A DNA stretch of 64,000 nt. Source: an uncultured Candidatus Saccharibacteria bacterium. GTDB taxonomy: Bacteria; Patescibacteriota; Saccharimonadia; Saccharimonadales; AWTP1-31. Below the pieces are notes generated by a model. It did no database searches and was not told the DNA's origin. It worked only from the letters and a program-made list of their open reading frames with translations. How positions within the stretch are numbered: position 1 is the first letter of the stretch; every line of letters starts with the position of its first letter. Below are positions 147-33,284 of this stretch, piece by piece. A program made the translations under genes and the position numbers. The stretch spans positions 19,101 to 83,100 of the forward strand of contig CAZXTE010000001.1 in NCBI GenBank assembly GCA_964643545.1. The letters are read 5' to 3'.

Positions 147-1010
147 ATGATTATTGATGACTCAAAGGTATTCATTGTCGGTGCAAATGGACAACTCGGT
201 CGCGCCTTAAAAGCTCAATATCCAAATGCGCAGTCTGCCGATATAGATGAGCTTGATATTACAGATGCCGATAGCGTAAAAAAATACGACTGGTCAAAGA
301 TAGACATCATCCTCAATGCAGCTGCCTACACAAATGTAGACGGCGCAGAAACAGCAGAGGGTCGAATAGCCGCCTGGAATGTAAACGCAGCTGCCGTTAA
401 GAACCTTGCGTACGCAGTGTGGGAGCATCAGCTAAAGGCGATTGTTCACATTTCTACTGACTACGTCTTCGACGGAAGTAAAGATAACCATAAAGAGACT
501 GAGTTGTTTAGCCCATTGTCTGTATACGGTAGTAGCAAAGCGGCTGGCGACCTGCTCATTTCTCAAGTAGACAAGCACTATATCTTGCGCACTTCGTGGG
601 TCATTGGTGAGGGTAACAATTTTGTTCGTACCATGCTTGGCCTTGGGGAAAAGGGTGTTAACCCAACGGTTGTCGCAGATCAAATTGGTCGACTAACCTT
701 TACCTCCGAGCTCGTTCGAGCGATCGATCACTTACTCACAGCAGGTGCTCCGTTTGGAACATATAACGTCAGTAACGGCGGTGAACCAGCCAGTTGGGCG
801 AACATAACGAGAGAAATATTTAAAGTAGCGGGCTACAGCTTGCAAGTTACAGACACAACTACTGCCGAATACTACGCAGGAAAAGAAGGCATCGCGCCCA
901 GACCACTGAAGAGTACCCTGGACCTTGAAAAAATCCAGGCAACCGGTTTTGTGTCGCTTGATTGGCAGAAGGAACTTACAAAATATATTGCAAAGGAGCA
1001 GCAGCAATGA
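147..1010 (+). CDS. rmlD: dTDP-4-dehydrorhamnose reductase
   Basis: 287 aa. N-terminal Rossmann motif VGANGQLG and SDR catalytic YGSSKAAGD (YxxxK). RmlD-typical length. ATGA overlap with rmlA. Confidence 0.85.
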   Translation: MIIDDSKVFIVGANGQLGRALKAQYPNAQSADIDELDITDADSVKKYDWSKIDIILNAAAYTNVDGAETAEGRIAAWNVNAAAVKNLAYAVWEHQLKAIVHISTDYVFDGSKDNHKETELFSPLSVYGSSKAAGDLLISQVDKHYILRTSWVIGEGNNFVRTMLGLGEKGVNPTVVADQIGRLTFTSELVRAIDHLLTAGAPFGTYNVSNGGEPASWANITREIFKVAGYSLQVTDTTTAEYYAGKEGIAPRPLKSTLDLEKIQATGFVSLDWQKELTKYIAKEQQQ

Positions 1011-1870
1011 AAGGCATAGTACTAGCCGGCGGGTCGGGCACACGACTCTACCCAATCACCCAGGGAGTCAGCAAGCAGCTCATACCCATCTTCGACAAAC
1101 CAATGATCTACTACCCGCTCACTACCCTCATCAATGCAGGAATCCGAGAGATACTCATTATTTCAACGCCCCAGGACCTGCCAAGATTTGAACAACTGCT
1201 TGGAGACGGCTCACGTATCGGGTGTAGCTTTACATATAAAGTACAGGAGACGCCACGTGGGCTTGCGGATGCATACATCGTCGGTGCTGATTTTATAGGG
1301 ACTGATGACGTAGCCATGGTGCTTGGAGACAACATATTCTTCGGTAGCGATTTCGACAAAAAGGTTAAGTCGGCGACCAAAGACCTAGATGGTGGAGTTA
1401 TTTTTGGCCAACAAGTTGCCGATCCCGAACGTTATGGAATCGTAGAATTCGACAAAGAAAACAAGGTTGTTTCGATAGAAGAGAAGCCAACGGAACCCAA
1501 GTCAAACTATGCCATCCCAGGATTATACTTTTTCGATAATGACGTTGTTGAGATTGCCAAGCACGTACAACCCAGCAATCGGGGTGAAATAGAGATTACA
1601 GAAATTCATAACGCTTACCTAAAACAAGGTAAATTAAAAGTAAACTTGTTGGACCGTGGTACTGCCTGGCTCGATACAGGAACATTCAAAAGCCTGAACC
1701 AGGCATCACAGTTTGTGCAGGTCATAGAAGAACGCCAAGGCATTAAGATCGGTTGCATAGAAGAGGCAGCCTACCAGCAAGGCTTCATAGACCGTACCCA
1801 GCTTGAAGAACTCGGCAATGAGCTCCTCAAGAGTGGATATGGCAAATACTTATTAGCGTGTCTTGTATAG
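1007..1870 (+). CDS. rmlA: glucose-1-phosphate thymidylyltransferase
   Basis: MKGIVLAGGSGTRLYPIT nucleotidyltransferase signature at an internal ATG (1007) that overlaps the rmlD stop. RmlA-like along the full length. The upstream 15 codons of the track ORF are judged non-coding. Confidence 0.9.
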   Translation: MKGIVLAGGSGTRLYPITQGVSKQLIPIFDKPMIYYPLTTLINAGIREILIISTPQDLPRFEQLLGDGSRIGCSFTYKVQETPRGLADAYIVGADFIGTDDVAMVLGDNIFFGSDFDKKVKSATKDLDGGVIFGQQVADPERYGIVEFDKENKVVSIEEKPTEPKSNYAIPGLYFFDNDVVEIAKHVQPSNRGEIEITEIHNAYLKQGKLKVNLLDRGTAWLDTGTFKSLNQASQFVQVIEERQGIKIGCIEEAAYQQGFIDRTQLEELGNELLKSGYGKYLLACLV

Positions 1871-10681: not shown

Positions 10682-10780
10682 TTTCTGAGTTTATCAACAA
10701 TTCGTTGTATTTCCTTCTATATGCCAGAACGCTTTTTTAAGCTACTATACCTATTAAGATAATTATGGAGATGTTGCTTG

Positions 10781-12706: not shown

Positions 12707-14329
12707 GTGCTTACAATAGATTGGTGGCCGCTACTAAGTGTAGCGCTTTATATTTCTTCATTTTTTAGTCTAAGTCTTTTTTTTGGCCTCAAAGCCCATC
12801 AGAAAAAACTCATTCCCGATAACTTTTTGTACATGGGTGGCCTAGCCATTTGTCTAGTCATCTGCTATTCTCAGTTTTACATTTTTGCCATTAGCCCAAA
12901 GCTTGGTCACGTCACGACTATTCTATTTATTCTCGCAGGCTTAGCAGTTTTGCCATTCCTGTTACGAACGCTTCTGATTCAAAAAACGATTTGGCAAATA
13001 ACTAAGAAGTACTTCTTTGTACCTTTTTTGATAATAGTTCTCCTCACTTTTCTGTATTCGTATTTCTTATTCGGCTGCACCACCAGCAAATACACTATTG
13101 ACCAATGGGGTGAAGTTCAAAACCCCGCCTTTTGTCACATATCGAAACTACCTATAGATAATGCTCTGCCCTACATCTACAGCGAGAAGGTTAAGAACAA
13201 TGATGCTAAATCATTGGTGATTGATTGGAGCATAGCCGACCGGCCACCGCTGCAAATTGCTACAACTTTGCCAATTTCTGATTTAGCCAAAACCACTGGC
13301 AGACCACAGCGTTACGCTATGTATTACGTCTTTTCCATCACATTACAGCTAAGCTGGATTGCGGTCATTTGGGGCATTTTAACAAAGCTTCTCCAGCGAA
13401 AATTACATGTCTGGGGTTCTATGTTGGCCCTGTCTGCTACGGGGTTCTTATACATTAACTCCGTTTTTGTGTGGCCAAAACTGATCTCAGCCAGTTTATT
13501 CGTATTTGGCGCCTTCATACTTTTTGAAACTAGCACCAAGAGACGAAACTTATTTACTTACAAGTATCTTACCCTAGCGGCAATCTCGTTCGCGCTGGCA
13601 TTACTCTCGCATACGGGCGTGTTGTTTACGTTAATAGTCCTTGCGCCGCTGGTTGCTTTTGACCTTTGGCGTAGTCAAAAAATAGACCAGAAGTTATTGA
13701 AGAGTCTCATAGTACCGACTGCTGCTGCCCTCATCTTGCTAGTACCATGGCAAATCACCAAAAATCATTTAATTTCTCATGATCGACTCATCAAGTGGCA
13801 CTTCGCAGGTGTAATCTCTGCGGAGGACCAGCGGGGAACTCTCAAAACTATAGTTGACGAGTACAAGAAGTTGCCCCTCGCAGCCTGGGCACACAATAAA
13901 CAGAAAAATATTGAAGCACTCTTTACGGGGGGCGTAGGCAACAGTTGCGACTCTGCAATTCGCAGGACCCTTGACGATTGCCACGTAGCCGTATGGAGAG
14001 ATCGAGAGTTCTTCAGCTCGTTCTATTCTTTAGGATTGTTTTCCATTGGATTCCCCGTAATTATCTGGCTTGGCCTTAAGAAGAAGTTGGACAGGCTTGA
14101 TATTATGCTACTTTTACTTACAGTACTGTACTTTATAGTTTGGGTGCTGTTGATGTTTATCCCGGGAGCAACCGTGATACATCAAGGGTCGTATGCTTCT
14201 GCTCTGTTTCTATTTATTTTGCTCATCAAGAATCTATCGCTAATGCCCGACGCAGCGTTTATAGCTTTTGTCGTTCTACAGCTCACCATATTTGGGTTAG
14301 CCTGGCTTCGACCTTTCGGCTTTTTGTAA
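12707..14329 (+). CDS. polytopic membrane protein, ArnT/PMT-like GT-C glycosyltransferase candidate
   Basis: 540 aa with many TM helices. The ADRPPLQ motif resembles the D-x-PPL loop of the GT39/GT83 families. The GTG start is uncertain. Confidence 0.5.
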   Translation: MLTIDWWPLLSVALYISSFFSLSLFFGLKAHQKKLIPDNFLYMGGLAICLVICYSQFYIFAISPKLGHVTTILFILAGLAVLPFLLRTLLIQKTIWQITKKYFFVPFLIIVLLTFLYSYFLFGCTTSKYTIDQWGEVQNPAFCHISKLPIDNALPYIYSEKVKNNDAKSLVIDWSIADRPPLQIATTLPISDLAKTTGRPQRYAMYYVFSITLQLSWIAVIWGILTKLLQRKLHVWGSMLALSATGFLYINSVFVWPKLISASLFVFGAFILFETSTKRRNLFTYKYLTLAAISFALALLSHTGVLFTLIVLAPLVAFDLWRSQKIDQKLLKSLIVPTAAALILLVPWQITKNHLISHDRLIKWHFAGVISAEDQRGTLKTIVDEYKKLPLAAWAHNKQKNIEALFTGGVGNSCDSAIRRTLDDCHVAVWRDREFFSSFYSLGLFSIGFPVIIWLGLKKKLDRLDIMLLLLTVLYFIVWVLLMFIPGATVIHQGSYASALFLFILLIKNLSLMPDAAFIAFVVLQLTIFGLAWLRPFGFL

Positions 14330-14367: not shown

Positions 14368-14892
14368 ATGGTTAAAAATAAAAAGGTTAGAAAGACTAAG
14401 ATAATTGCACTCACCGCCGCTGTGCTGCTTCTAGCTGGCGGCTCTGCCTTTGCCTACGTAAAAACCAGACATCCAGCAGCCCCGGCGCCTCTGCCGGTCG
14501 GTGGAGTCAACCTTGATAAGCCAACTGCAGAAGAAATAAAAGAAACTGAAGAATTCAAGAAGCAGCAAGCAAAAGCGACGACTAACCCGCCCACCCAAAC
14601 GGCTTCTAACAACAATGCCAACGTTGTCATAACGACCATAACCACAACCGAAGCTAGGGGCTATGTATCGGGCACAGTTGAAGAAGGTGGCACCTGCACG
14701 CTAACGCTCACAAGAGGTACGGCAAAAGTAACAGCGAGCTCAACTGGCATACTCGATGTCAATAAAACGACCTGCTCCCAAATCACAATCGGCCCGGGTC
14801 AACTAAGCTCTGGTGAATGGGATGCAGTACTCAGTTACACTTCTCCAAGCATAAGTGGATCTTCTGCGGTCCAGAAACTAAAGGTACCCTGA
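14368..14892 (+). CDS. signal-anchored secreted protein, unknown function
   Basis: 174 aa. N-terminal basic region plus TM (KIIALTAAVLLLAGGSAFAYV), a P/T-rich linker and a small two-Cys beta-rich C-domain. Confidence 0.6.
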   Translation: MVKNKKVRKTKIIALTAAVLLLAGGSAFAYVKTRHPAAPAPLPVGGVNLDKPTAEEIKETEEFKKQQAKATTNPPTQTASNNNANVVITTITTTEARGYVSGTVEEGGTCTLTLTRGTAKVTASSTGILDVNKTTCSQITIGPGQLSSGEWDAVLSYTSPSISGSSAVQKLKVP

Positions 14893-14895
14893 GCT

Positions 14896-16560
14896 ATGTT
14901 GAGACCATTAAAGAGATTTGGTGCATTTATCAGCTTGCTAACCGCAGCGGTACTAATCGTGTTTGGACTTCAGCCAGCCTACGCAGCATCTGGCAACACC
15001 TTCAAAGCTGATCGTATTATTGATGACGCCATATTTTTTAACACAGCCCAGTTGTCCGTTACAGACATACAGAATTTCCTAAATAGTAAGGTCCCAACGT
15101 GCGACACCAATCATACCGGCAGCGGAAGCAACCAACCGCCGTTTACCTGTCTCAAGGACTACTCACAAACCATCAGCGATAGGGCGGCAGACCAGTATTG
15201 TACTGGTGCCGTAAGCGCTGGCACAAAGTCGTCGGCACAGATTATTAAAGATGTCGCAAATGCCTGTGGAATCAATGCTGCTGTACTAATAGTATTGCTC
15301 CAAAAAGAACAGTCCTTAATTACTGATACGTGGCCATGGGCATCACAGTACGAAAAAGCTACCGGTTACTATTGCCCCGATGACCCATCTAGGCCGGGCT
15401 GGTGTGACCCGGAATATGCAGGCTTTTTCAACCAAGTGTGGTATGCTGCCAGACAATTCCAGAGGTACGTGAAACAGCCGGGTTCTTTTAACTTTGCTGT
15501 TGGAAGAGCAAGCAGTGTACTCTTCCAGGCAAACCGCCCTAGTTGTGGTGGCACAACCCTTACTATGCAAACCCGAGCAACCGCAGCACTTTACAACTAT
15601 ACACCGTACCAGCCTAGTCAGGCTGCTCTAGACTATCTCTACGGCGTAGCCCCTGGTGACCCTAACACACCCGGCACGCCAGCTTATTGTGCAGCTTATG
15701 GGAACAGGAATTTCTGGCGACTCTTCAATGATTGGTTTGGGCCAACTACTTCAGATAACAATACGGATGTTATAAGTTTTGTTCGGCTTAACCATGCATC
15801 AGGGAACGTTGAGGTAGTAGGCTATACCTCAATAAGCGAGTACTCTTACCCCGCTCGGCATAACTTCTCTAGCTATCCCTCCGTACCAGCCGATGGCAAT
15901 GTGATACCCCTATTCTGGCCTAACGGTGACCTCGTATTCGTGAGACTTAATCATGCCTCAGGAAATGTCGAAGTGGTGAGCTATAGTGCGAATAGCGGAT
16001 ATAAACAACTTGTTAATATTGCAATAACTGGCTACCCCTCCGTGCCTGGCGATGGCAATGTTATCCCAATGTTTAAACCTAACGGGGATTTAAGTTTCAT
16101 TCGACTAAACCACAGTTCAGGAAATGTCGAAGTGGTGAGCTATGGCCCCGGAAGTAATTATAGAAGTCTCACCAGAATTCAAAATTCTAGCTATCCCTCC
16201 GTACCAGCCGATGGCAATGTGATACCCCTATTCTGGCCTAACGGTGACCTCGTATTCGTGAGACTTAATCATGCCTCAGGAAATGTCGAAGTGGTGAGCT
16301 ATAGTGCGAATAGCGGATATAAACAACTTGTTAATATTGCAATAACTGGCTACCCCTCCGTGCCTGGCGATGGCAATGTTATCCCAATGTTTAAACCTAA
16401 CGGGGATTTAAGTTTCATTCGACTAAACCACAGTTCAGGAAATGTCGAAGTAGCTACCTACAGCGCCTCTAGCAACTACAAGCAACTTATTGATTTACGC
16501 CTGACTGGTTACCCTAATGTAGCTAATGATGGTGCCGTAATTCCGCTATTCACCAGGTAG
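14896..16560 (+). CDS. secreted protein: conserved N-domain plus five ~53-aa beta-propeller-type repeats
   Basis: Signal peptide (..LQPAYA/AS). N-domain carries ..SAQIIKDVANACGINAAVLIVLLQKEQSLITD... It is followed by 5 repeats of the form F(V/I)RLNH(A/S)SGNVEV..Y....Y.......GYP.VP.DGNVIP.F.PNGDL. Confidence 0.7.
   Translation: MLRPLKRFGAFISLLTAAVLIVFGLQPAYAASGNTFKADRIIDDAIFFNTAQLSVTDIQNFLNSKVPTCDTNHTGSGSNQPPFTCLKDYSQTISDRAADQYCTGAVSAGTKSSAQIIKDVANACGINAAVLIVLLQKEQSLITDTWPWASQYEKATGYYCPDDPSRPGWCDPEYAGFFNQVWYAARQFQRYVKQPGSFNFAVGRASSVLFQANRPSCGGTTLTMQTRATAALYNYTPYQPSQAALDYLYGVAPGDPNTPGTPAYCAAYGNRNFWRLFNDWFGPTTSDNNTDVISFVRLNHASGNVEVVGYTSISEYSYPARHNFSSYPSVPADGNVIPLFWPNGDLVFVRLNHASGNVEVVSYSANSGYKQLVNIAITGYPSVPGDGNVIPMFKPNGDLSFIRLNHSSGNVEVVSYGPGSNYRSLTRIQNSSYPSVPADGNVIPLFWPNGDLVFVRLNHASGNVEVVSYSANSGYKQLVNIAITGYPSVPGDGNVIPMFKPNGDLSFIRLNHSSGNVEVATYSASSNYKQLIDLRLTGYPNVANDGAVIPLFTR
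15871..16452. repeat. 318-bp-period tandem duplication with two 264-bp copies that read as identical (15871-16134 and 16189-16452) inside the propeller gene
   Basis: Direct reading of the nucleotide lines shows both copies starting agctatccctccgtaccagccgatggc and running to ggaaatgtcgaagt. Each copy corresponds to a two-blade unit of 106 aa. Confidence 0.9.
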
Positions 16561-17853
16561 TTAGTTCTTCTTCAGGCACGTTTTCCACGCTTCGTCGGGA
16601 TTTATATCAAAGCAATATTGTTGCCCAGGACGTAAGGTCGAGAACTCGTTAGCTTGGCCTCTGAAGTTAAACTTCTTCAACTCTTTTACTCTAAAGTAGA
16701 ATGGGAAAAATAGCACGTATAAAGCCACCAAAGCTGAGGCAATCTTGCCCATGTTATTCCTGGTAAGTGCCGCAAAGTAGACCAGTATCAGCAGCCAGCA
16801 GAAGATTGGGATGAAAAAGTATCGTGCGCCGAAGGAATTTAGTTGTAACATATCCCAGAACTGCACAATCGGAACAGTTTGAGCTCGTACGAATGTCGAA
16901 GCATAAATAAGAGACCCGAATAATATCACTGCTCGCATATAGATGTTGGCCTTGATGAAGGCGTAGATCGTCATAATAATAGCGAACATACCCAACATAA
17001 ACATCTGGGGCGACCCTGCTATCTCTTTGGTGATTATTTTCTCGCCTGCGACTGGCAAAGCAAAGAACCTCATACCGGTAATCTTAATCGGTTTACTATA
17101 GTTATTTATTAGTTCTCTTTTCTGAGATACCAGACTGGCAGTTCTTTGTTGGGGGGCCTGTACGTAGACAGCTATCTGAATGAGCGCACAAGCAACTATA
17201 GCAGCAGCCTTAATCCAGTGCATTCTATTTTTGCTCTTTTGAGCAGTAATTAAGTATGCAGCCGTTAGTGCTAGGAAGGGAGCAAACGGCCCACTCAACC
17301 CAGACACAATAAGCACAGTAATATCAAATACCAACCATTTCTTCTGCGTTTTTGGGCCCCTAACTAGTACCAAAATTGCGGCAGCGGCCAAGAACCAAAT
17401 AGTATTTGTAAAATTTCCATAAATCTCAGCAATGCCCGGAATAAGTAGGTATAGAAAAGTGAATGTCATCTTTGATCGCACACTGAATTTTTTTATAAGG
17501 GTGCTATCCGACCAGAATATAAACAATGGTAGGACCATGACCAGAATGGCCACTAAATTTGCCGCCGCTGGGGCGAATCTTAGGGGTACCAACAGCAGCG
17601 GTAGAGCTACCAATCGAGGGAAGAAGGGCAAGATTCCAGAATAAGTCTTGAAGATACTGTAGCCGCCACGCATATAGGCATCTCTATAAAATACGGCGAA
17701 GTCTTCTGCCCAAAACTGAGCATTAAAAAGCAGCTCCGGCCTTCGTAATACGATTACGCCAACGCCAATCAAACACACTACTACCGCTTTTTTCATATCT
17801 GAAAGTACGACAAATTTACGCCAAATGTTAGCTGCCAGCGACTTTATTTCCAT
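16561..17853 (-). CDS. polytopic membrane protein, putative GT-C-type glycosyltransferase/polymerase (paralog of 11440..12681)
   Basis: 430 aa. AQFWAEDF, SGLSGPF and GARYFFIPI match AQFWGEDG, SGLTGPF and GNRYFWLPM in the paralog. The tail is YCFDINPDEAWKTCLKKN. Confidence 0.55.
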   Translation of the reverse strand: MEIKSLAANIWRKFVVLSDMKKAVVVCLIGVGVIVLRRPELLFNAQFWAEDFAVFYRDAYMRGGYSIFKTYSGILPFFPRLVALPLLLVPLRFAPAAANLVAILVMVLPLFIFWSDSTLIKKFSVRSKMTFTFLYLLIPGIAEIYGNFTNTIWFLAAAAILVLVRGPKTQKKWLVFDITVLIVSGLSGPFAPFLALTAAYLITAQKSKNRMHWIKAAAIVACALIQIAVYVQAPQQRTASLVSQKRELINNYSKPIKITGMRFFALPVAGEKIITKEIAGSPQMFMLGMFAIIMTIYAFIKANIYMRAVILFGSLIYASTFVRAQTVPIVQFWDMLQLNSFGARYFFIPIFCWLLILVYFAALTRNNMGKIASALVALYVLFFPFYFRVKELKKFNFRGQANEFSTLRPGQQYCFDINPDEAWKTCLKKN

Positions 17854-17857
17854 ATTC

Positions 17858-19756
17858 CTATTTTAATCTAGCATTAGCGATGTCACGACGAAACTCTGGG
17901 TGATAAAACGGGTCATCTTTAATGAGAGTGCCCCACTTATTTAACATAAGCTTTATCTCTTTATCGAACAGTTCTAGGTCGCGTTGCTTAGAACCAGGCT
18001 GGCCAATAGAGACTGACTCGTGGTGAAACAGATTTACGTGCGGCAGGTACACATTCCTATAACCTTTATCGTATAGCTTTAAACAGAAGTCAACATCGTT
18101 AAAGGCAATCTTAAAGATGGGGTCGAATCCATTAACTTTATTGAACTTGGAGACACCAACCATCACACAGGCTGCAGTTACAGCTGTGAAGTTCCGCGTG
18201 CCACCGACATATAAATTTTGAATGGGGCTCTGGGGTGGTTTATCTATATAAGCCGGGAAGAAATGCCCGGCTATGCCTGGGGTGCCATCCTGGCCACCAA
18301 CACCAAGGATAATGCCTGCATGCTGCAGCCTCTTGTCTGGATAATATAGTTTGCAGCCCACTGCACCAACGTCATCTTGTTGGCTGTAGGCAACCATCCC
18401 TTGGATCCAATCCGGAGATATGACCTCAGTGTCATTGTTGAGGAATAGTAGCTGTGAACCACTTGAGTTATCCGCTCCTAGATTGCAGGCTGCGGCAAAG
18501 TTGAACGGCTTTTCCCACTTCACCACCCTCAGGCCTTTTCCGAGCGATTTGTACCTTTTGTACAGATCCCACACTTTGTCGTCTGTACTGCCCGTGTCTA
18601 CTATTACTACTTCGTAATTATTATAGGTTGTTTTTTCTTTAATTGACCTTAAGCAACGCTCAATATAACCAAATTGATCTTTGGTTGGGATAACGATACT
18701 TACTAACGGATTATCACTTTCATACGCAACCCTCCACATAGAGTATGGAATTTGCCAAGAAATCTCGGCTTTCATGTTACGAGCCTTGACATCATCTTGT
18801 AAGGCTTTCTTCTGATTAACATAGGCGTACTCTTTGGAAGCAGGATTTTCAGCAGTCGAATTTTCAGTTTTCCGCCAACTGTAGAGTACCGTGGGTATGT
18901 GCTGAATTTTGTCAGTCTGGCGAGTAACTCGAAGGAATAGGTCCCAGTCTTGAGCACCTTCGTAACCAGGTCGAAAACCGCCAACTTTCTCAACTAACGA
19001 ACGTCTAATGACCGCAAAGTGAGTTATGTAATTGATTGATCGTAAAAATTCAAAACTCCAATCTGGTTTAAAGAAGGCATCTTCATGCACCTTGCTTTGT
19101 GAATCTATCTTGTCTTCGTCGCTATAAACAAGGTCGGCTTTTTTTTCATTAATAACAGTCGCTGCGTGGAATAAAGCATTTGGCCATAGTACATCATCGT
19201 GATCGAGCAGAGCTATAAATTCACCACTTGCTAGCTTTAATGCTGAGTTTGTGGCATGACAGATATGACCGTTTTCTTGGCGTATGGTGTACTTTATTCT
19301 GGGTTCTTTTTGGGCGTAAGCCTGAATCGCTCCAATTACTTTTTTATCGGTCGAGGCATCATCGGCAATGCAAAGCTCCCAGTTATCGTAAGTCTGGGCT
19401 ATAACGGACTCAATGCACTCTTTTAGGTGCTGAATGTTAGGATTGTAGGTTGGCACTAATACACTGATTAGAGGGCGAGATTTGAAATTCTTTTGGTTTT
19501 TCACTTGCTGCTTCAAAATACCACCCGTTGGGTAATTCTTTTTAAACCACTGTCTGTATTCTTTGTCGATTTGAATCTTTGTGTGAGCCGCTAGGGTTAA
19601 TGAATCTATGCGCGAAATGAGTTTTTTTGCACCCGGTAGACGCCGGGTATAACGATTAATAAAGATGTGTTTGCCGAAGATCTTGATGTGCAGAATTCGG
19701 ATTATAATTGGATATATCCCCTGCTTTACTTTCTTTACTATAGACGTCATTTTCAC
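17858..19756 (-). CDS. bifunctional glycosyltransferase with two GT2 domains
   Basis: 632 aa with two GT2 cores: ISVLVPTYNP..CIADDAST..LDHDD and VSIVIPTKDQ..VIVDTGSTD..FLNNDTE. GTGA overlap with the upstream methyltransferase gene. Confidence 0.8.
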   Translation of the reverse strand: MKMTSIVKKVKQGIYPIIIRILHIKIFGKHIFINRYTRRLPGAKKLISRIDSLTLAAHTKIQIDKEYRQWFKKNYPTGGILKQQVKNQKNFKSRPLISVLVPTYNPNIQHLKECIESVIAQTYDNWELCIADDASTDKKVIGAIQAYAQKEPRIKYTIRQENGHICHATNSALKLASGEFIALLDHDDVLWPNALFHAATVINEKKADLVYSDEDKIDSQSKVHEDAFFKPDWSFEFLRSINYITHFAVIRRSLVEKVGGFRPGYEGAQDWDLFLRVTRQTDKIQHIPTVLYSWRKTENSTAENPASKEYAYVNQKKALQDDVKARNMKAEISWQIPYSMWRVAYESDNPLVSIVIPTKDQFGYIERCLRSIKEKTTYNNYEVVIVDTGSTDDKVWDLYKRYKSLGKGLRVVKWEKPFNFAAACNLGADNSSGSQLLFLNNDTEVISPDWIQGMVAYSQQDDVGAVGCKLYYPDKRLQHAGIILGVGGQDGTPGIAGHFFPAYIDKPPQSPIQNLYVGGTRNFTAVTAACVMVGVSKFNKVNGFDPIFKIAFNDVDFCLKLYDKGYRNVYLPHVNLFHHESVSIGQPGSKQRDLELFDKEIKLMLNKWGTLIKDDPFYHPEFRRDIANARLK

Positions 19757-20742
19757 TTCTTTCTCTTAATTACCCTCTTGGTTGCTCTAAGTAATTTGGT
19801 GACCTTCCAAGATAATGATCGTTGCATTGCCGTATTAGATGCCTCAAGGGTTTGTACTTGTAATGAAAGGAGGTTTATTGAGTGCTGCATACTATTTTTT
19901 TGATTATCAATTGCGTTCTTTACTATCTCTGTTAGGGCTAGCGGTAGTTTGTTAACAACACTGACAGTTTTAGTGGCAACCTTCGGATAATACTCATCCA
20001 TGGCTTTCGCTACTCTCCTAACTTTACTTTGATTCCCAGAAATAAAGTAGATTACTCTATAAGAATTAAACTCGTCAACATCACTATCTAGCAGCTTGGT
20101 GTTTTCATTATAAAATCGATTAATCTCACCTGCTTTCATCGATGTAGTGTCGAGTACGCTAGATAGAAAAAAGATAGTCTGCATGGTAACCCAATTCTCA
20201 ACTTTATTACTATAGAGTTTACTAAAGTATAGTTTTTTAGAATGAATCACTGACTCTATTTTTTGTTGAGTTGGTAAGACATTGTCTATATGTTCTGCTA
20301 GCCACTGATGTCCTTTTCCTTCAAATGATTTGAAAAGCGCATTTAAATTCTTCTCGGCTTCGGTAACCACACTTGAAGAATTTTCGAACGGACAGCACAA
20401 GAAAAATCCTTCTTTAGAGACACGTATGCATTCTAGAATAAAATCTGCTCGTTTTTCTGTAGATATATGCTCTAAAACATCAAAACTAACCACTACATCA
20501 AATTCCTCATTTTTAAAGGACATTTTTGTTCCATCGCCCTTGACGTAGTTATCTTCCTCTACATCAAAAACATCGAGTACCGTTACTTTATCTTGCCTCG
20601 AAAAATCGTGGGTTTTTCCCTTGTATCCTCCAACGTCAAGTACTTTGAGAGTTTTACCCTTTGGCCTAATTACTCCTACTAAGTCTGCGGTTATATTTTG
20701 ACGAGAATACTGATCGAAAGGTAAGTCTAGGCGTGCGTTCAT
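19753..20742 (-). CDS. SAM-dependent methyltransferase with helical C-terminal extension (candidate glycan chain-terminating enzyme)
   Basis: Motif I LKVLDVGGYKG and FDVVVSFDVLEHI. The C-terminal ~60 aa are heptad-like and basic (..LLSLQVQTLEASNTAMQRSLSWKVTKLLRATKRVIKRKK). Translationally coupled to wzt. Confidence 0.65.
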   Translation of the reverse strand: MNARLDLPFDQYSRQNITADLVGVIRPKGKTLKVLDVGGYKGKTHDFSRQDKVTVLDVFDVEEDNYVKGDGTKMSFKNEEFDVVVSFDVLEHISTEKRADFILECIRVSKEGFFLCCPFENSSSVVTEAEKNLNALFKSFEGKGHQWLAEHIDNVLPTQQKIESVIHSKKLYFSKLYSNKVENWVTMQTIFFLSSVLDTTSMKAGEINRFYNENTKLLDSDVDEFNSYRVIYFISGNQSKVRRVAKAMDEYYPKVATKTVSVVNKLPLALTEIVKNAIDNQKNSMQHSINLLSLQVQTLEASNTAMQRSLSWKVTKLLRATKRVIKRKK

Positions 20743-21944
20743 GATATACCGCTCTTATCCCATGTGCCAAACAGCTCCACCTTGCTTGCCGGATTGGTTG
20801 TAGTATTAGCGGCAACTACCGTGAACTTAAATCCATTGTAAATATGATCGTGTTCTTGGGTCATATCTTTACTAAACACAGCTACGGTAAGTTTGTACTC
20901 TCCTTCCAGGAACGGCACCCTAGGTATGACGTAGGAAGCCGTCTGATCCGTTTGAAGCTCGTAATTTATGCTATTTGGGCCAGATAGATTTACCCCTTCG
21001 GAATCTTCAAACATTAATCCAAGAATTATTTTCTGTTTTTCTTCAGACTTGAATGAAATCTTAACTTCTAATTCTTCGCCACTGGTAACTCGTTTTTTCT
21101 TAAGCGGTTTGCCATTGCTGTAGAATTCTAGTGAATCAACTTTTACCTTGCTGTCACCCCAGCGTCGAACCTTCTTTTCACTCTGTACTGTTTCGTCGCC
21201 ATAACTACTGGCATTAATTTCCTGGTATACGGCAGCAGCTTCACTTGGTGTATAAATGCCTAGAAGCTTACCGTTATCAATAACAGCAACTCTTTCGCAG
21301 TATTTTTTTATAGCCTGCATATCGTGCGAAACAAGCACGACCGTTCTATTCGATTTCTTGTATTCAGCAAAGACGCTGTTGCACTTTTTCTGGAAGGCCT
21401 CATCTCCAACGGCTAGCACTTCGTCCAGTACCAGTATATCGCTTTTAGCTCGAATGGCGATCGAAAAGGCCAGACGAACCTGCATTCCCGATGAGTAATT
21501 CTTAAGCTTCTGGTCCATAAATTTCTCTATTTCAGCAAAGTCAACAATATCCTGGTACATTAAGTTCATTTCTTTGCGCCCGAAACCCAATAGCGCACCG
21601 TTTAAAAAAACATTTTCGCGACCTGTAAGTTCTGGGTTGAAACCAACACCTAATTCTATGAAGGGAGTAAGCTTACCATTGACAGATATAGCCCCTGTAT
21701 CTGGAGCGTAGATCCCTGCTAACAACTTAAGCAATGTGCTCTTCCCACTTCCATTCCTGCCAACTATCCCAAAGAAATTTCCCTTTTTTATCTCAAATGA
21801 CACATTGTCTAGAACTTTTTGTCTTTCAAACGTCCGATTCCCCCTAAACAGACTTACGAACAAGCCCTTAACAGACCCCTGTTTTTCGTGGGGAAGTTTG
21901 AATGTTTTACTGACAGACTCAATCTTAATAGCAAGATCATCCAT
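20739..21944 (-). CDS. wzt: polysaccharide ABC exporter ATP-binding protein with C-terminal glycan-binding-type domain
   Basis: Walker A GRNGSGKST, signature YSSGMQVRLAF and Walker B ILVLDEVLAVGD. An extra beta-rich C-domain of about 150 aa resembles Wzt_C. Confidence 0.85.
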   Translation of the reverse strand: MDDLAIKIESVSKTFKLPHEKQGSVKGLFVSLFRGNRTFERQKVLDNVSFEIKKGNFFGIVGRNGSGKSTLLKLLAGIYAPDTGAISVNGKLTPFIELGVGFNPELTGRENVFLNGALLGFGRKEMNLMYQDIVDFAEIEKFMDQKLKNYSSGMQVRLAFSIAIRAKSDILVLDEVLAVGDEAFQKKCNSVFAEYKKSNRTVVLVSHDMQAIKKYCERVAVIDNGKLLGIYTPSEAAAVYQEINASSYGDETVQSEKKVRRWGDSKVKVDSLEFYSNGKPLKKKRVTSGEELEVKISFKSEEKQKIILGLMFEDSEGVNLSGPNSINYELQTDQTASYVIPRVPFLEGEYKLTVAVFSKDMTQEHDHIYNGFKFTVVAANTTTNPASKVELFGTWDKSGIS

Positions 21945-22744
21945 TACAGATCCTCGGCAAAGTTTTTTGCTTCTCTCTTAAAGTACAGGACGCCGAATAA
22001 TAATACAGTGAGTGTTATAGAATATGGTACCAGTCGCGACCATTGACTACCGTAGACATGACTAATTGTTAACGAACTATGCGAAACTGCAGCGTACCTC
22101 GCGTCCTGAACGGCAGTAGCGATTGGATTCACCATCAAGATTTTCTGATACAAGGGCTTCGTTATGATCGAGAGTGGATATAGTATGGGCGTTAGATAGA
22201 ACAACCCTTGAAGCGAAACCTCCCATAGGTGCGTAACGTCCCGATACTTTACAAAGGCCGTCGCAAGAATAAGAGATACTCCCAAGGCAAACAAGTAGAG
22301 CTGAACCAGCACTAATGGCAACAGCAAGATACTTCGCATAATATCAACGTGATTGAATAGCAAGAAAATAAACACAATAATAAGATTAAGCGCTAAGTTA
22401 ATCAGTGCGGTAACGCTACTCGAAAGAACTATTATCCATCTTGGGATACGGATCTTGCGAATTAAGTCACCTCTGGAAACAATACTACTAAGACTTATAC
22501 TTGTCATTTCTGCAAAAAAGTTCCATAGTACTATTCCTAATAATAGGTATATGGGGTAGTGTTCTATGCCCTTACCTATCTTTAAGAATTTTACAAAGAC
22601 GACATAGAGTATCAGGAACAGCAACAACGGGCGCAGAAGCGACCATGCGTAGCCGAGAACAGAGCCTTGATAGCGAAGCTTGAAGTCGGTTCTAACCAGT
22701 TCACCAAGAAGAGTCCTGTTCTGTTTTGAAAATATATGTTTCAT
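21944..22744 (-). CDS. wzm: ABC-2 type polysaccharide exporter permease
   Basis: 266 aa with six TM helices. ABC-2 N-terminal pattern ELVRTDFKLRYQGSVLGYAWSLLRPLL. 1-nt overlap with wzt. Confidence 0.85.
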   Translation of the reverse strand: MKHIFSKQNRTLLGELVRTDFKLRYQGSVLGYAWSLLRPLLLFLILYVVFVKFLKIGKGIEHYPIYLLLGIVLWNFFAEMTSISLSSIVSRGDLIRKIRIPRWIIVLSSSVTALINLALNLIIVFIFLLFNHVDIMRSILLLPLVLVQLYLFALGVSLILATAFVKYRDVTHLWEVSLQGLFYLTPILYPLSIITKPLYQKILMVNPIATAVQDARYAAVSHSSLTISHVYGSQWSRLVPYSITLTVLLFGVLYFKREAKNFAEDL

Positions 22745-22783
22745 GGGTTACCAGCCTTTTATTATAAGATAGGTACTAGAAAC

Positions 22784-23794
22784 ATGAAAAAGATATTTGT
22801 CGTAGTCCCAAACTGGAATGGTAAAGATGAGCTAAAGGCCTGTCTTGAGTCGCTTCACGCGCAGACTCAAAGCGCACAGATTTTGGTAGTAGAGAACGGC
22901 TCTAACGATGGCTCCCTAGAATATATCCAAGAGAACTTTAACAACGTGCAACTTGTCATAAATAAAACGAACCTGGGCTTTGCGGGTGGGGTAAATAGCG
23001 GCATTAGGGAAGCAATCGCTAGTGGAGCAGAATATATAGCCCTATTCAATAACGATGCAGTTGCAGATAAAGACTGGCTCAAGCATCTTCTTAAGTCCTT
23101 AGAACAAAACTCGGAAGTCGGAATCACCACCTGTAAACTGTTGAGTGCAGATAAGAAACTGATCGACAGCACGGGTGACCAATATACCACATGGGGACTA
23201 CCCTACCCCAGAGGAAGGGGTGAGATTACCTCCAATAGGTATGATTCCGACACGCATATATTTGGGGCTTCTGGTGGGGCAAGCTTGTACAGAACTAAGA
23301 TGTTTGAAGAAATAGGACTATTTGACGAGGATTTCTTTGCCTACTTTGAAGATGTAGACTTGAGTTTCCGCGCCCAACTTGCTGGCTGGAAAGTACTTTA
23401 CGCTCCCAAAGCTATTGTTTATCACAAAATAGGCGCAACAAGCGGCAAAATAAAGGGCTTTACCACGTATCAAACGTTCAAGAACTATCCATTATTATTC
23501 TGGAAGAACGTTCCCTTTCCGCTTATGTTTAAAATGCTCCCACGATTTACACTCGTTTACGTCAGCATATACATAAGTTCTCTCTTAAAAGGACGTGGTT
23601 TGCCTGCAACAAAAGGCCTTGTGCGCTCACTCACTTTATTACCGAAAAAGACTCTGGAGCGGCGACGCATCCAGAAAAGCCGAATGGTTTCTGCCGAGCA
23701 CATTAATGGCTTGCTCTTGCATGACTTGCCCCCCAATGCCGACAAACTAAGGAAGCTACGTTCTCGTTGGTGGAAAATTATCGGCAAACGGTAA
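22784..23794 (+). CDS. GT2 glycosyltransferase (rhamnosyltransferase-like)
   Basis: FVVVPNWNG, VVENGSNDGS, FNNDAV and YFEDVDLSFR motifs. Start taken at MKKIFVVV (22784). Confidence 0.8.
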   Translation: MKKIFVVVPNWNGKDELKACLESLHAQTQSAQILVVENGSNDGSLEYIQENFNNVQLVINKTNLGFAGGVNSGIREAIASGAEYIALFNNDAVADKDWLKHLLKSLEQNSEVGITTCKLLSADKKLIDSTGDQYTTWGLPYPRGRGEITSNRYDSDTHIFGASGGASLYRTKMFEEIGLFDEDFFAYFEDVDLSFRAQLAGWKVLYAPKAIVYHKIGATSGKIKGFTTYQTFKNYPLLFWKNVPFPLMFKMLPRFTLVYVSIYISSLLKGRGLPATKGLVRSLTLLPKKTLERRRIQKSRMVSAEHINGLLLHDLPPNADKLRKLRSRWWKIIGKR

Positions 23795-23818: not shown

Positions 23819-24226
23819 TTATATATTAAAGGTCTTCTTGGTCTTGTATGGTTCTAGCTCTAACGAGTCCTGAATTTCAGTATATACAAACGGCATCTCT
23901 TCTCGGGCGAGCGCCTGCATTGTTTTATCAATCATTTCGTATAATTTTGACGTTGGCACATCTTTTAGATCTCGTTTTTCAACTTCTTCTAGCAACTTCT
24001 CAAGTCTCTTGCCAAGAACCTTGATTCGATGTTGTTTACCAATCTTGTATTGTTCTTGCAAATTGTCTAAATACAGACCCTGTTGGTTCTGGATCTCATT
24101 TTCATATTGTTTTGCCCAATTAAACAAAGTTGTCTTACTGACGTCGAGTTTCTTTGCAATATTTGCATAGCTTTCATTGCTCGCACGTAACTCAATAAAT
24201 TTCTCATGTTTCTCTGGCTTACTCAT
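23819..24226 (-). CDS. small helix-turn-helix protein with coiled-coil tail (transposase/terminase-small-subunit-like HTH)
   Basis: SYANIAKKLDVSKTTLFNWAKQY is a classic HTH, followed by a charged helical region. The ATG at 24226 is preceded by GGGGAG at 5-nt spacing. Confidence 0.5.
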   Translation of the reverse strand: MSKPEKHEKFIELRASNESYANIAKKLDVSKTTLFNWAKQYENEIQNQQGLYLDNLQEQYKIGKQHRIKVLGKRLEKLLEEVEKRDLKDVPTSKLYEMIDKTMQALAREEMPFVYTEIQDSLELEPYKTKKTFNI

Positions 24227-24295
24227 CAACACTCCCCTTGCAATTTTCCTGTTCCGGTATTATACCACCCCTTACCGCCAGGGGTCACTCACGCA

Positions 24296-25618
24296 CTACT
24301 TCTTAGGCGAGAGTCTGGGTAGTATTTGAGCGCTCAATACCATACCCGTAAGCAGCCACCACTGTGTAGTCACCGCCTCGTTACTCCATACATGGTTGAG
24401 GAGTCCAACAATGATGTACCCCCAGAAACTCGCCTGGAGCGCTCTTTGCAAAACGAACATGTCTTGATTCTTTGTAAGCGTTTTCCTGAAAGACAGATTG
24501 TAGATAAGTAGGGCAAGTAGACCAAGAAAGAGCAGCAACCCCACCACTCCGACCTCGTACCCTATTTGTAGAAAGTAGTTTTCGGTCAATTGCCCGCCAT
24601 TAGTATTACGGATCGATACAATGCCAGCGGTCCCTGGACCATGACCCTGAGGCTCATGAATGATCCCATCTATGGCTTGGCGCTGAAAAGAAACACGCAG
24701 CTCGTTAGGATCAGCCTGGTTGGTGCTCTGGTCACTGTGCAAGAGTAGGTTTTGAGTGACGTAACTATCACGCGTCATCACTGCAACACCACAGAACAAC
24801 AGGACCACGGCGATAAGTACATACTTAAACCGGCCAGCCAGTGCTCGCAACACGCTGCCATAGGTGAGAACAACCGCCAGAACTACAGATAGAACAGCAC
24901 CAATCCACGCGCTACGAGAAAAAGTGAGCAGCAACGCCAACCCTTGCAACCCCAGTAAACCCAACAAGATTAGTCGCTTTTTCGCCTTCAGCACCATGAG
25001 CACCAACATAGTCATAGGAATCATGAGGTACGCACCTAGTGAATTTGGGTCACGAAGAGTGGACATAATACGAGGGAAGTCGGGCTTGTCGTCGATGAAA
25101 AACGCGGGTTTGACCCCCCGAGCGACACTATAGCCAAAGTGCGTCATTACATCTTTTGGCAGGAAGTACTGCAATACTCCAAGAACCGCCACTACCGAAC
25201 TAACAATCAATACTAATCGAATCAAAAAACGCTGTTTCTCTTTGTCTAGCCGCGCACCGGCAACTATGCCAATCAGCAATAGGGCCAAGGGCCGCGTGTT
25301 ATAGGCAGTCGCTTCCAGAGCGACTTGAGAGTATCCTTGAGAGCCAAGGAGCATAAGCAACACATGGGTCGTTACATAAAGCCCGGAAAGGACCGTCAGA
25401 ATGCGAAATAATCTATTACTAAACAACCCCCGCCGATATGCAAGACCCAGAAATATCGGGACTGATAGCATCAAAACAACATCTTTGCCTGCCTTCCACG
25501 CCGACAAGCCCCCGGTGTAGGTGCTTAACCAAATCGACAAGAAGATATGAAGGGGCATATACGTAAGATATGCGTACGCAAACCAGCGCGGGAACCAAGA
25601 CAGCTGCTGTTTGTTCAT
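24296..25618 (-). CDS. O-antigen ligase/polymerase family (Wzy_C-like) polytopic membrane protein
   Basis: 440 aa with about 11 TM helices. LLTFSRSAWIGAVL motif, followed by an exposed loop with H..Q.....G. Confidence 0.65.
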   Translation of the reverse strand: MNKQQLSWFPRWFAYAYLTYMPLHIFLSIWLSTYTGGLSAWKAGKDVVLMLSVPIFLGLAYRRGLFSNRLFRILTVLSGLYVTTHVLLMLLGSQGYSQVALEATAYNTRPLALLLIGIVAGARLDKEKQRFLIRLVLIVSSVVAVLGVLQYFLPKDVMTHFGYSVARGVKPAFFIDDKPDFPRIMSTLRDPNSLGAYLMIPMTMLVLMVLKAKKRLILLGLLGLQGLALLLTFSRSAWIGAVLSVVLAVVLTYGSVLRALAGRFKYVLIAVVLLFCGVAVMTRDSYVTQNLLLHSDQSTNQADPNELRVSFQRQAIDGIIHEPQGHGPGTAGIVSIRNTNGGQLTENYFLQIGYEVGVVGLLLFLGLLALLIYNLSFRKTLTKNQDMFVLQRALQASFWGYIIVGLLNHVWSNEAVTTQWWLLTGMVLSAQILPRLSPKK

Positions 25619-26875: not shown

Positions 26876-28363
26876 TTGAAAAGTTCTTTTTTGAAGGTGC
26901 GCGTATCGAAAAGTCTGTTCATTGTTATTTCTAGCTCAATTATTTTATCAATCCTGGTTCAACCGCTTATAGCTCTAAAAACCTCTGCGCTGGGCACCTA
27001 CCCTAACGCTTCTATTGCAAACCGAGCCCTCGGCTATACGGGCCAATGGGGCGGTAACGCCTGCAAAGATGTTGGTAGGAGTGGATATACTGGTGGTTAC
27101 CCTGGCGGTCAAACCTACGATGGTCAGTGCCGGGCGTTTGTTAACTGTGTGGTTTGGTCCGTTAGTAATCGTACGCAGTGGTTGGGTGGCGGAGACTACT
27201 TTAGCCCACTCGCAGCCAATGGTCATGAAATCAAAGATATTAATGGTTTAGTAAAAGGTGATGTCATCCAGGTCGGGCAAGGCACGCACACATTCATAAT
27301 TGTTGGTCGTACGGGCGGCAATATATTCAGAGTAGTGGACTCGAACAGCAGGCTAGATGAGGTGGTCCGAACATATGACCGTAAAGTCACCCTCGACAAT
27401 ACAAATCGTGCGTTTCGATTAGGTCTGGCTGATGGGCCTCAACCAACTGTGAACGGAGGGGTCGGGACAAGATTGCTCGGTGATGTAAATGGAGATGGGC
27501 TAGACGATGCGATCGTTATGTTTAAAGACACAGGGACAGCAATGGTCGCTCTTTCGCAAGGCAGCAGCTTCTCTAACCCTTCCGCCTGGAGTTATGGCCA
27601 TTCCATGAACGCAAGTAATTACTTTTTGGCCGATGTAAATGGCGATAAAAAGAAGGACTTGGTCGGATTCTTCGCCCAGGACGGGCGCTGGAAAGTTAGC
27701 CTATCTTCTGGGACCGGGTTTTGGTCACCCGTAGAGTGGGCGTATGGGCAGGGTGTTGGTACGAGTAATCAATGGTTAATGGATGCAAATGGTGACGCGA
27801 AGGCCGACATCATAACTCTAGATAAACAAAACGGCGACTGGTATGTAAGCAGCTCATCCGGGAGTGGGTTCTGGCCACCAAAGCGCTGGATTAGTGGCCA
27901 TGGAGTCGGAAGTGACGATCAAGCAGCAGGAGATTTTAACGGGGACGGCAGAGCTGATGTTGCCATTTGGCTTCGGGATGGCTCGTGGTATGTAGCCCTA
28001 TCTACGGGCAGCACGTTCGGCTATCCTGGCCACTGGTCTGCCGGGCAAGGATTAAATAGCAGCCAACGCCTCGTTGGGGATGCAAACGGCGATGGCAGAG
28101 CTGACACAGCATACTTCTACGCCGATACGGGCAGGTGGTACGTATCTACCTCTTCTGGTTCAGGGTTCTGGACACCAACGGAGTGGGCGTATGGGCAGGG
28201 CGTAGGGACCACGGAGCGTTTCTTGGGCACGACCACAAAAGATTCGCTAGCTGACATGGTTACATTTGACAGAAACACGGGAGATTGGTGGGTTAGTGTA
28301 TCGTCTGGATCAGGCTTTTGGCCACCTTCTCGTTGGATCAGTGGTCACGGTAAGGCTTCTTAG
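26876..28363 (+). CDS. secreted CHAP/NlpC-P60-like amidase domain fused to six FG-GAP-type repeats
   Basis: TTG start with GAGGG 6 nt upstream, then a signal peptide. Cys/His pair GQCRAFVNCVV ... GTHTFIIVG ... VDSN. Repeats carry D-x-N-G-D-G-x-x-D calcium-loop motifs (GDVNGDGLDD, ADVNGDKKKD, DANGDAKAD, DFNGDGRAD, DANGDGRAD). Confidence 0.7.
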   Translation: MKSSFLKVRVSKSLFIVISSSIILSILVQPLIALKTSALGTYPNASIANRALGYTGQWGGNACKDVGRSGYTGGYPGGQTYDGQCRAFVNCVVWSVSNRTQWLGGGDYFSPLAANGHEIKDINGLVKGDVIQVGQGTHTFIIVGRTGGNIFRVVDSNSRLDEVVRTYDRKVTLDNTNRAFRLGLADGPQPTVNGGVGTRLLGDVNGDGLDDAIVMFKDTGTAMVALSQGSSFSNPSAWSYGHSMNASNYFLADVNGDKKKDLVGFFAQDGRWKVSLSSGTGFWSPVEWAYGQGVGTSNQWLMDANGDAKADIITLDKQNGDWYVSSSSGSGFWPPKRWISGHGVGSDDQAAGDFNGDGRADVAIWLRDGSWYVALSTGSTFGYPGHWSAGQGLNSSQRLVGDANGDGRADTAYFYADTGRWYVSTSSGSGFWTPTEWAYGQGVGTTERFLGTTTKDSLADMVTFDRNTGDWWVSVSSGSGFWPPSRWISGHGKAS

Positions 28364-29741: not shown

Positions 29742-29755
29742 CGTTTCTCCTTTGG

Positions 29756-30130: not shown

Positions 30131-30149
30131 ACGGCTTAAGACCTTCTAT

Positions 30150-30287
30150 CTAGTGCGTTAGACGCACGCGACCTTTGATACGTCGGCTTTTTAGAACTCG
30201 ACGACCGGCTTTACTGGCCATTCGTTTTAGGAATCCGTGCTCGCGTGCGCGGTGGCGTTTTTTTGGTTGGTAGGTTCGTTTTGGCAT
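30150..30287 (-). CDS. rpmH: 50S ribosomal protein L34
   Basis: [45 protein letters not shown], 45 aa, from the internal ATG of the 73-aa track ORF. Confidence 0.9.
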
Positions 30288-33251: not shown

Positions 33252-33284
33252 GGGAGGCCCTACGATGGCCTACAATACTAGGTG

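Follow-up and report, generated by a model that had tools for sequence, protein, structure and literature searches.

Does a short operon of an uncultured Saccharibacteria bacterium encode a line for making a surface glycan whose chains are marked at their end before they leave the cell? Patescibacteria live as epibionts, are monoderm and have very small genomes; to our knowledge, their surface chemistry is essentially uncharacterised, and we know of no chemistry for any Saccharibacteria glycan. Our search of the literature returned no paper naming both Saccharibacteria and Wzt, and a recent perspective makes no mention of glycans. From the analysis of a 64,000-nucleotide stretch of DNA (the window), we consider it likely that the operon encodes an ABC-transporter-dependent "polymerase-terminator" glycan line, with internal synthesis, a methyl-marked end and export of marked chains only. 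Read in this way, the locus offers a concrete, testable model of a major Saccharibacteria surface polymer, and its counterpart of the WsaE enzyme, compact and split in two, a system for studying terminator-polymerase coupling.

Organisation of the operon and its exporter

The order wzm, wzt, methyltransferase, double GT2 described in the initial annotation is present on the minus strand (Table 1), and the three successive junctions overlap by 1, 4 and 4 nt, the last one at 19753-19756. A gap of 4 nt separates the double GT2 from the fifth gene, which codes for a membrane protein that gave no match in a Pfam search, is a paralog of the ORF at 11440-12681 and, among the related loci, has homologs only in the two nearest relatives (L001 and L081). 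A promoter and terminator scan gave a signal no better than that of shuffled sequences.

Table 1. Features of the predicted glycan locus in the window
Feature	Position	Strand	Basis and remarks
rmlD + rmlA, dTDP-rhamnose pathway	147..1870	+	TIGR01214, TIGR01207
Polytopic membrane protein, 430 aa	16561..17853	-	ORF; last gene of the operon
Double GT2 glycosyltransferase, 632 aa, predicted polymerase	17858..19756	-	Two PF00535 stretches, 3.3e-51
Methyltransferase, whole gene, 329 aa	19753..20742	-	Third gene; Methyltransf_11 8.8e-9
Methyltransferase C-terminal motif SLSWKVTKLLR + cationic amphipathic helix, aa 308-329 + stop codon	19753..19821	-	
Methyltransferase long helix, aa 262-307; candidate spacer/oligomerisation helix	19822..19959	-	Model
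Methyltransferase catalytic core, aa 1-235	20038..20742	-	Class I SAM fold; family signatures FDQYxRQ, HxWLxEHI
wzt, whole gene	20739..21944	-	Second gene
wzt C-terminal carbohydrate-binding domain, aa 246-401 + stop codon	20739..21209	-	PF14524, model
wzt nucleotide-binding domain, aa 1-245	21210..21944	-	PF00005 4e-22
wzm, ABC-2 type permease, 266 aa	21944..22744	-	First gene; PF01061 7.6e-20
Divergent single-domain GT2; candidate adaptor/primer glycosyltransferase	22736..23794	+	PF00535/PF13641 7.7e-22
Wzy_C (O-antigen ligase / O-oligosaccharyltransferase family) membrane protein	24296..25618	-	PF04932 7.7e-14

In NCBIfam, Wzm scores best, below cutoff, against the galactan Wzm/RfbD permease; it adjoins an ABC domain whose own NCBIfam matches are of the TagH/Wzt type. 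Besides ABC_tran, Wzt carries the extra beta-rich C-terminal domain of about 150 aa that had been proposed: it covers approximately aa 246-401 (156 aa), is all-beta in the predicted structure (pLDDT 89.6) and scores 55.3 bits for PF14524 (Wzt_C) over aa 259-381 (gathering score 30.4). Its model has a jelly-roll fold, in agreement with the solved carbohydrate-binding domains (CBDs) of Wzt proteins. The closest PDB sequence is the full-length Wzt of Aquifex aeolicus (8dku/7k2t, 3.4e-60, alignment over aa 11-367), of which the methyl-pocket residues are only partially conserved: the equivalents of Thr346 and Ala348 are retained, Leu300 is replaced by Met or Ala, and the equivalent of Trp362 is not conserved or ambiguous, being His or Ile according to two alignments that differ by one residue. 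Across the relatives, the residue at this last position tracks nothing informative with respect to the presence of the methyltransferase.

A methyltransferase and predicted polymerase collinear with fused enzymes

The Pfam matches of the 329-aa protein are solely to methyltransferase families, with no kinase domain, and its structure is predicted with high confidence (pLDDT 94.7). In the model, a helix at 238-251 is followed by the single long helix 262-307, a kink and a last helix at 310-328, with a net charge of +8 and a predicted hydrophobic moment (muH) of 0.58. Family-wide, the last 20 aa carry a median charge of +6. The resemblance to WbdD-type terminators put forward in the initial annotation stands for the arrangement, that is an N-terminal catalytic domain, a helix and a predicted C-terminal amphipathic membrane-binding helix (aa 310-328), but our comparison with WbdD found no specific sequence or structural similarity. 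Homologs from several phyla share a conserved motif S-W-[KR]-x-T-x-P-[LI]-R close to their C-terminus, and fused proteins carry it where the methyltransferase meets the GT2 (for example at position 527 of L069); together with the terminal helix, the corresponding segment of the window protein (aa 308-329) is a candidate membrane anchor or polymerase-docking element.

The family profile matches the N-termini of many proteins of 750-1750 aa, and the methyltransferase and the double GT2 of the window are collinear with one WsaE-like protein of Anoxybacillus (P0262): the former is 33% identical to its aa 5-212 (2e-32) and the latter 42% identical to its aa 418-955 (2e-150). The two modules are fused in 11 related loci; in 29 others the GT2 is a separate gene directly downstream, the same split as in the window, where they are not one polypeptide. 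As in WsaE-type systems, the methyltransferase gene comes right after wzm-wzt with overlapping codons (cf. PMC2943079), and the next gene contains two tandem GT2 modules. By sequence, the methyltransferase and the double GT2 appear to correspond to the two parts of a WsaE-type enzyme, divided just past the conserved basic motif. This putative kinship rests on the published architecture and on the Anoxybacillus homolog; no homolog among the search matches carried the name WsaE.

Conservation in relatives and flanking genes

Relatives were found by an alignment-based scan of genome contigs, a scan with the single methyltransferase sequence having given none. In 67 of the 71 related loci with enough upstream sequence, the gene immediately before the methyltransferase, in the same orientation, is wzt, an arrangement far beyond chance; 59 of these 67 also have a Wzm homolog ahead of Wzt. 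The linkage of the methyltransferase with a CBD-type Wzt holds nearly without exception, across phyla. The one locus apparently devoid of the methyltransferase (L084) does encode a divergent member of the family, on the other strand, which the precomputed Pfam annotation had missed.

In the cultivated Southlakia, which harbors wzm, a Wzt_C-bearing wzt and a double GT2, wzt and the GT2 are immediate neighbours, and there is no annotated member of the methyltransferase family. A CBD-bearing Wzt can therefore function in this clade with no methyltransferase next to it. Tn-seq of the genetically tractable Southlakia epibionticum scores its syntenic copies of wzm, wzt, the double GT2 and the divergent GT2 as growth-defective or essential; the paper does not discuss these genes in its text, and Wzt is annotated there as "BtuD". 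The "EPS" genes SEML1_0081-0083 of Southlakia were considered as a counterpart of the window locus and rejected; they represent a Wzx/Wzy system.

Upstream of the operon, the divergent GT2, called at 336 aa on the source contig, probably starts near 22784; its best NCBIfam match is the rhamnosyltransferase TIGR01556, below cutoff, and it is retained at the same position in nearly all Saccharibacteria loci. The Wzy_C protein is a candidate for moving the exported glycan onto its acceptor; in 8 loci a homolog is encoded upstream of wzm, and L082 and L084 have one as well. For the sugar, the evidence is circumstantial: use of dTDP-L-rhamnose and a 2-O-methyl-rhamnose cap are suggested by rmlA (TIGR01207, 455.9 bits, above the cutoff of 360.65) and rmlD (TIGR01214, 200.6 bits, just below the cutoff of 224) in the window, and by WsaF or RgpF adjacent in the relatives L085 and L083. 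WsaF adjoins the locus in L085 and is fused in P0264; no WsaF was found in the window, nor were rmlB, rmlC or an initiating phosphoglycosyltransferase. Rhamnose data from a preprint on TM7x pili concern the host wall and were set aside.

Proposed pathway, alternatives and known systems

In the proposed pathway, a lipid-linked glycan would be assembled at the cytoplasmic side of the membrane; early sugars would probably come from the divergent GT2, and the double GT2 would polymerise a repeat that is plausibly rhamnose-rich. [quoted passage not shown] The capped end may then be recognised by the C-terminal domain of Wzt, licensing export via Wzm/Wzt, and the Wzy_C-family enzyme or another ligase could transfer the chain onto a surface acceptor.

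The methyltransferase could instead be a decorator, acting internally or non-stoichiometrically without terminating the chain, with the Wzt C-domain reading the backbone, the adaptor or another cap. This appears rather unlikely given the nearly invariable linkage with CBD-type Wzt across phyla; moreover, N-terminal fusion to the polymerase over a helical spacer is the layout of proven terminators (PMC11231755), and the WsaE domain at the same position makes the terminal cap (PMC2943079). A substrate other than a glycan (lipid, small molecule or protein), with a coincidental position in the operon, is very improbable. The nearest solved structures are indeed small-molecule or uncharacterised methyltransferases, an outcome that the initial annotation would have counted against its reading, but at 9-18% identity they indicate a shared fold only and do not discriminate the substrate, and the synteny and repeated glycosyltransferase fusions are hard to square with an unrelated one.

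Capping and export may also proceed as proposed with a tail that is an anchor or docking element but no ruler, chain length being set by terminator:polymerase stoichiometry or kinetics; we give this an even chance. Even when straight, the long helix would measure only about 7 nm and fall far below the length of known rulers. The tail announced as helical, basic and heptad-like is helical and basic, but its heptad pattern is not significant: hydrophobic residues occupy 8 of 13 core positions in the best register, a score matched by 786 of 5000 shuffles (p about 0.16). [quoted passage not shown] Against this, the hydrophobic periodicity of the spacer peaks family-wide at 3.5 residues (z>2 in 51 of 110 tails), and spacer length ranges widely between lineages, as expected for a tunable ruler (PMC11231755), with about 350 aa between the domains of fused relatives and standalone forms of 440-520 aa in some lineages. 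A more far-reaching reading joins several propositions and is unlikely as a whole: the cell could not grow as an epibiont without the glycan; no natural terminator with a ruler would be smaller than the 329-aa enzyme, whose single helix would give a short defined chain; the Wzt C-domain of Southlakia-like strains without the methyltransferase would have become cap-independent or read a different cap; and the adjacent essential lysozyme-like/propeller, Ig-like and GT-C-like proteins would act on the glycan of the cell itself, not on that of the host.

Returning to the polymerase-terminator line, several known systems resemble it. The WzmWzt of A. aeolicus (7k2t, 8dku, 6o14) belongs to a diderm, exports an LPS O antigen and has a C-domain only 17% identical to that of the window. 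ORF6 of Klebsiella pneumoniae O7 comprises a methyltransferase-kinase, a coiled coil and two rhamnosyl GT2 modules; by its description it differs in a kinase-like domain, a CBM and a methyl-phosphate cap, the window protein being too small for either domain. The WbdD/WbdA/Wzt-CBD systems of E. coli O8/O9a (Klebsiella O5/O3) share the logic and division of labour: WbdD is a standalone terminator whose N-terminal catalytic domain is joined through a helical spacer to an amphipathic membrane helix at the C-terminus; polymerisation falls to a distinct multi-GT protein, and the Wzt bears a CBD (PMC11231755, PMC3482155). The O8 form makes a methyl-only cap; the O9a type differs from the window enzyme by its kinase domain. 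Finally, the S-layer glycan locus of Geobacillus stearothermophilus NRS 2004/3a (wzm-wzt-wsaE-wsaF), also in a monoderm host, shows the same overlaps between wzm, wzt and the next gene, and the same module order of an N-terminal class I methyltransferase and two GT2 modules, with rml genes and a Wzy_C-family transferase near both loci. There, WsaB has the role of transferring the glycan to its acceptor (PMC2943079), and the 2-O-methyl cap is the proposed terminator of the poly-rhamnan chain, read by Wzt (PMC2943079, PMC3898925). The window enzyme differs by its division into two genes, cut just past SWKVTK(L/P)LR, and by a much shorter spacer. The initial annotation had judged cap-and-export logic notable in a monoderm; since the scheme is known from both Gram-negative O-antigens and this Gram-positive S-layer glycan, the locus would be a new example in Saccharibacteria of an established mechanism.

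Operon structure and conserved linkage

ORF calls and Pfam matches confirmed that the span 19753-22744 consists of exactly three minus-strand genes, wzm, wzt and the methyltransferase, with a double GT2 gene next, as read in the initial annotation. The successive junctions (overlaps of 1, 4 and 4 nt, then a 4-nt gap before the gene of a polytopic membrane protein, the last of the wzm operon) indicate a single translationally coupled operon. The extra C-terminal domain that had been suspected in Wzt indeed matches Wzt_C (PF14524; aa 259-381, 55.3 bits against a Pfam cutoff of 30.4). The 430-aa polytopic protein has a 413-aa paralog in the window; neither matches Pfam or NCBIfam, and homologs of both were restricted, among the fetched loci, to L001 and L081, the nearest relatives. 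In mechanical ORF calls, the 5' ends of wzm and a divergent GT2 gene (+) overlap by 9 nt (22736-22744); an alternative call for the latter (336 aa, not 352) leaves about 39 nt, which is very little room for two divergent promoters. One promoter-like site (TTTTCA-18-TATAAT) lies nearby, such sites being no commoner in the window than in shuffled sequence.

Features of the glycan region and its borders (window coordinates)
Feature	Position	Strand	Length (aa)	Match or remark
GtrA-like	1863-2300	+
UDP-glucose 6-dehydrogenase and adjoining SDR enzyme	2287-4561	-		dehydrogenase TuaD-like, 537.6 bits
GT2	4617-5441	+		GtrB/CsbB-like
YfhO-family	5408-7729	-
GT2	9938-10681
Class I methyltransferase	10778-11443	+	221	Methyltransf_11, 1.1e-10
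Polytopic membrane protein	11440-12681	-	413
Polytopic membrane protein	12707-14329	+	540	SEML1_0889 (GT-C/ArnT-like)
Beta-rich protein	14368-14892	+	174	SEML1_0890 (Ig-like)
Protein with repeated RLNH(A/S)SGNVEVV blades	14896-16560	+	554	SEML1_0891 (lysozyme-like + FG-GAP propeller)
Polytopic membrane protein	16561-17853	-	430
Double GT2	17858-19756	-	632	two Glycos_transf_2 stretches
Methyltransferase	19753-20742	-	329	Methyltransf_11
wzt	20739-21944	-	401	ABC_tran + Wzt_C
wzm	21944-22744	-	266	ABC2_membrane
Promoter-like site	22790-22761	-
HTH ORF	23819-24232	-	137	HTH_Tnp_1, 1.7e-5
Wzy_C protein	24296-25618
Secreted FG-GAP/VCBS-type repeat protein	26876-28363	+	495	PF13517, 2.6e-19
jag, yidC, rnpA, then dnaA, dnaN, recF	28360-34355

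A profile scan using one genome per species gave 195 relatives, of which 80 loci were kept, their ORFs being called and searched with the window proteins; 75 were true relatives, 71 of them with sufficient upstream sequence. In 67 of these 71, the methyltransferase start lies within a few bases of the end of a Wzt gene that runs on the same strand; 65 of these Wzt proteins continue for at least 120 aa past the ATPase domain. Of the four remaining loci, two (L036 and L066) also have wzt as a neighbor of the methyltransferase. PF14524 is above threshold in all of ten distant Wzt proteins that a single-sequence query had missed (from Clostridia, Lachnospiraceae, Planctomycetota and Paceibacteria). 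Reciprocally, four close Wzt homologs, sampled from contigs outside the methyltransferase match list, were all found adjacent to a methyltransferase of the family, which is convergent in one of them (L084). All close relatives of the window methyltransferase and Wzt belong to Candidatus Saccharibacteria/Saccharimonadales MAGs, and the suggestion of a possible CPR host was thus right by inference from these relatives.

Methyltransferase tail and fused homologs

The methyltransferase family comprises 1,076 representatives at E<=1e-30 in a library of 1.84 billion proteins, many of them being N-terminal domains of proteins of 750-1750 aa. Its catalytic core is followed by a tail that consists of a spacer of variable length, a motif near S-W-[KR]-x-T-x-P-[LI]-R and then basic residues; the family's last 20 residues carry a median charge of +6. 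The helical, heptad-like basic tail initially described was borne out as to the basic helix, the predicted terminal helix being cationic and of high amphipathicity (muH 0.58, net +8), whereas a heptad register was not significant in the 46-residue long helix taken on its own (p ~0.16). In the spacers of 110 relatives, however, the strongest hydrophobic period is 3.5 residues (0.25 versus ~0.1 at other periods), with z>2 in 51.

Methyltransferase and double GT2 form one protein of ~1,000-1,200 aa in 11 loci, whose hosts include Methanosarcina, Archaeoglobales, Clostridium beijerinckii, C. malenominatum, an Aminicenantes MAG and a Roizmanbacteria MAG. In these fusions the motif (consensus STxWRITKPxR...KKL) lies at the junction of the spacer and the GT2 modules, at precisely the point that divides the two window genes. 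Six of the fusions (set A3), used as a query, recovered more Clostridium proteins, a 966-aa protein of Anoxybacillus flavithermus (P0262) and ~1,500-aa proteins with added WsaF_N and WsaF_C domains. The window methyltransferase aligns to aa 5-212 of P0262 (33% identity, 2e-32) and the double GT2 to aa 418-955 (42% identity, 2e-150). Since they match successive parts of this protein, the adjacent genes are, by alignment, a split version of a P0262-type enzyme.

Surrounding glycan genes and synteny with Southlakia

The cultivated Saccharibacteria Southlakia epibionticum carries genes (SEML1_0890-0895) that are syntenic with window 14368-23794 and were scored growth-defective or essential by Tn-seq, which adds interest to the locus; the transporter and GT2 genes are not discussed in the text of that paper. 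Convergent to the operon lie three ORFs that match SEML1_0889-0891 in order and orientation. SEML1_0890 and 0891 are essential, and the Southlakia authors speculated that host glycans are their target; as their linkage to wzm/wzt is conserved, proteins of this type may rather act on the glycan of the cell itself. The 554-aa protein has homologs in 24 of the fetched loci, the 174-aa protein in 13.

Also in the window are rmlA, which scores above its cutoff, rmlD, which falls just short of its own, a Wzy_C gene and a GT4 gene. The GtrA-like, GtrB/CsbB-like and YfhO-family proteins are the parts of a three-component system by which wall polymers are glycosylated on the outer side of the membrane. 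Near the wzm locus of Southlakia there are an essential GT2 gene and a GtrA gene (SEML1_0898/0899). The UDP-glucose 6-dehydrogenase beside the SDR enzyme, whose matches include UDP-xylose synthase and ArnA-type decarboxylases, suggests that the locus also makes a pentose sugar or a uronic acid. A second, 221-aa methyltransferase adjoining a GT2 gene in the same glycan region could methylate a sugar precursor or the polymer, as an alternative methyl source; in the other fetched loci, the operon has no linked homolog of it. The Wzy_C gene and the divergent GT2 have between them an ORF with a transposase-type helix-turn-helix, which could be the relic of an IS element or a regulator located within the glycan locus. 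The 495-aa secreted protein, with an N-terminal domain before its repeats and a homolog in L012 only among the fetched loci, separates the glycan locus from jag, yidC and rnpA in the directly adjoining replication-origin gene set. In the related locus L085, jag (KH/R3H) likewise lies within ~3 kb of wzm.

Candidate mechanism and known systems

The best-supported model for the locus is a polymerase-terminator scheme, which would be coupled to cap-dependent ABC export. The main rival is that methylation would be a decoration, the carbohydrate-binding domain (CBD) of Wzt reading something else. Its basis is Southlakia, in which wzm (SEML1_0894), a wzt with Wzt_C (0893) and a double GT2 gene (0892) abut without a methyltransferase and no family member is annotated elsewhere. 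However, absence by annotation can mislead: the methyltransferase of the related locus L084 (5713-6771 of that locus, minus strand, convergent), a clear member at E 4.4e-54 to the family profile A1, escaped annotation, having no precomputed Pfam match and being detected only by this profile. It and SEML1_0893 represent annotation gaps in public data. A non-glycan substrate for the methyltransferase is very unlikely because of the synteny and the fusions.

As described for WbdD, WbbB and Klebsiella O7 ORF6 (PMC11231755), a helical spacer separates the distal catalytic domain from an amphipathic element that lies near the membrane and beside the polymerase; the window methyltransferase is predicted to share this layout. 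In WsaE of Geobacillus stearothermophilus, an N-terminal methyltransferase makes a terminal 2-O-methyl-rhamnose cap and is followed by two rhamnosyltransferase domains; wsaE directly follows overlapping wzm and wzt, its partners being WsaF and the Wzy_C-type transferase WsaB (PMC2943079, PMC3898925). The P0262-type fusion has this published architecture, and the window would carry the enzyme as two genes; the putative link between the window pair and WsaE rests on that architecture and on the Bacillaceae homolog. L085 shows the row wzm-wzt-methyltransferase-GT2x2-WsaF, and another relative (L083) has an RgpF-domain protein after GT2x2.

No paper mentioning both Saccharibacteria and Wzt was found in the searchable literature, and Patescibacteria are described as monoderm (PMC11665869). 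Polymerase-terminator logic has been described as widespread (PMC11231755), and together with cap-dependent export it is already known in diderms (E. coli O8/O9a, Klebsiella O3/O5/O7/O12 and Aquifex) and also in a monoderm, for the Geobacillus S-layer glycan; the novelty here is limited to recognizing it in Saccharibacteria and to its compact, split form.
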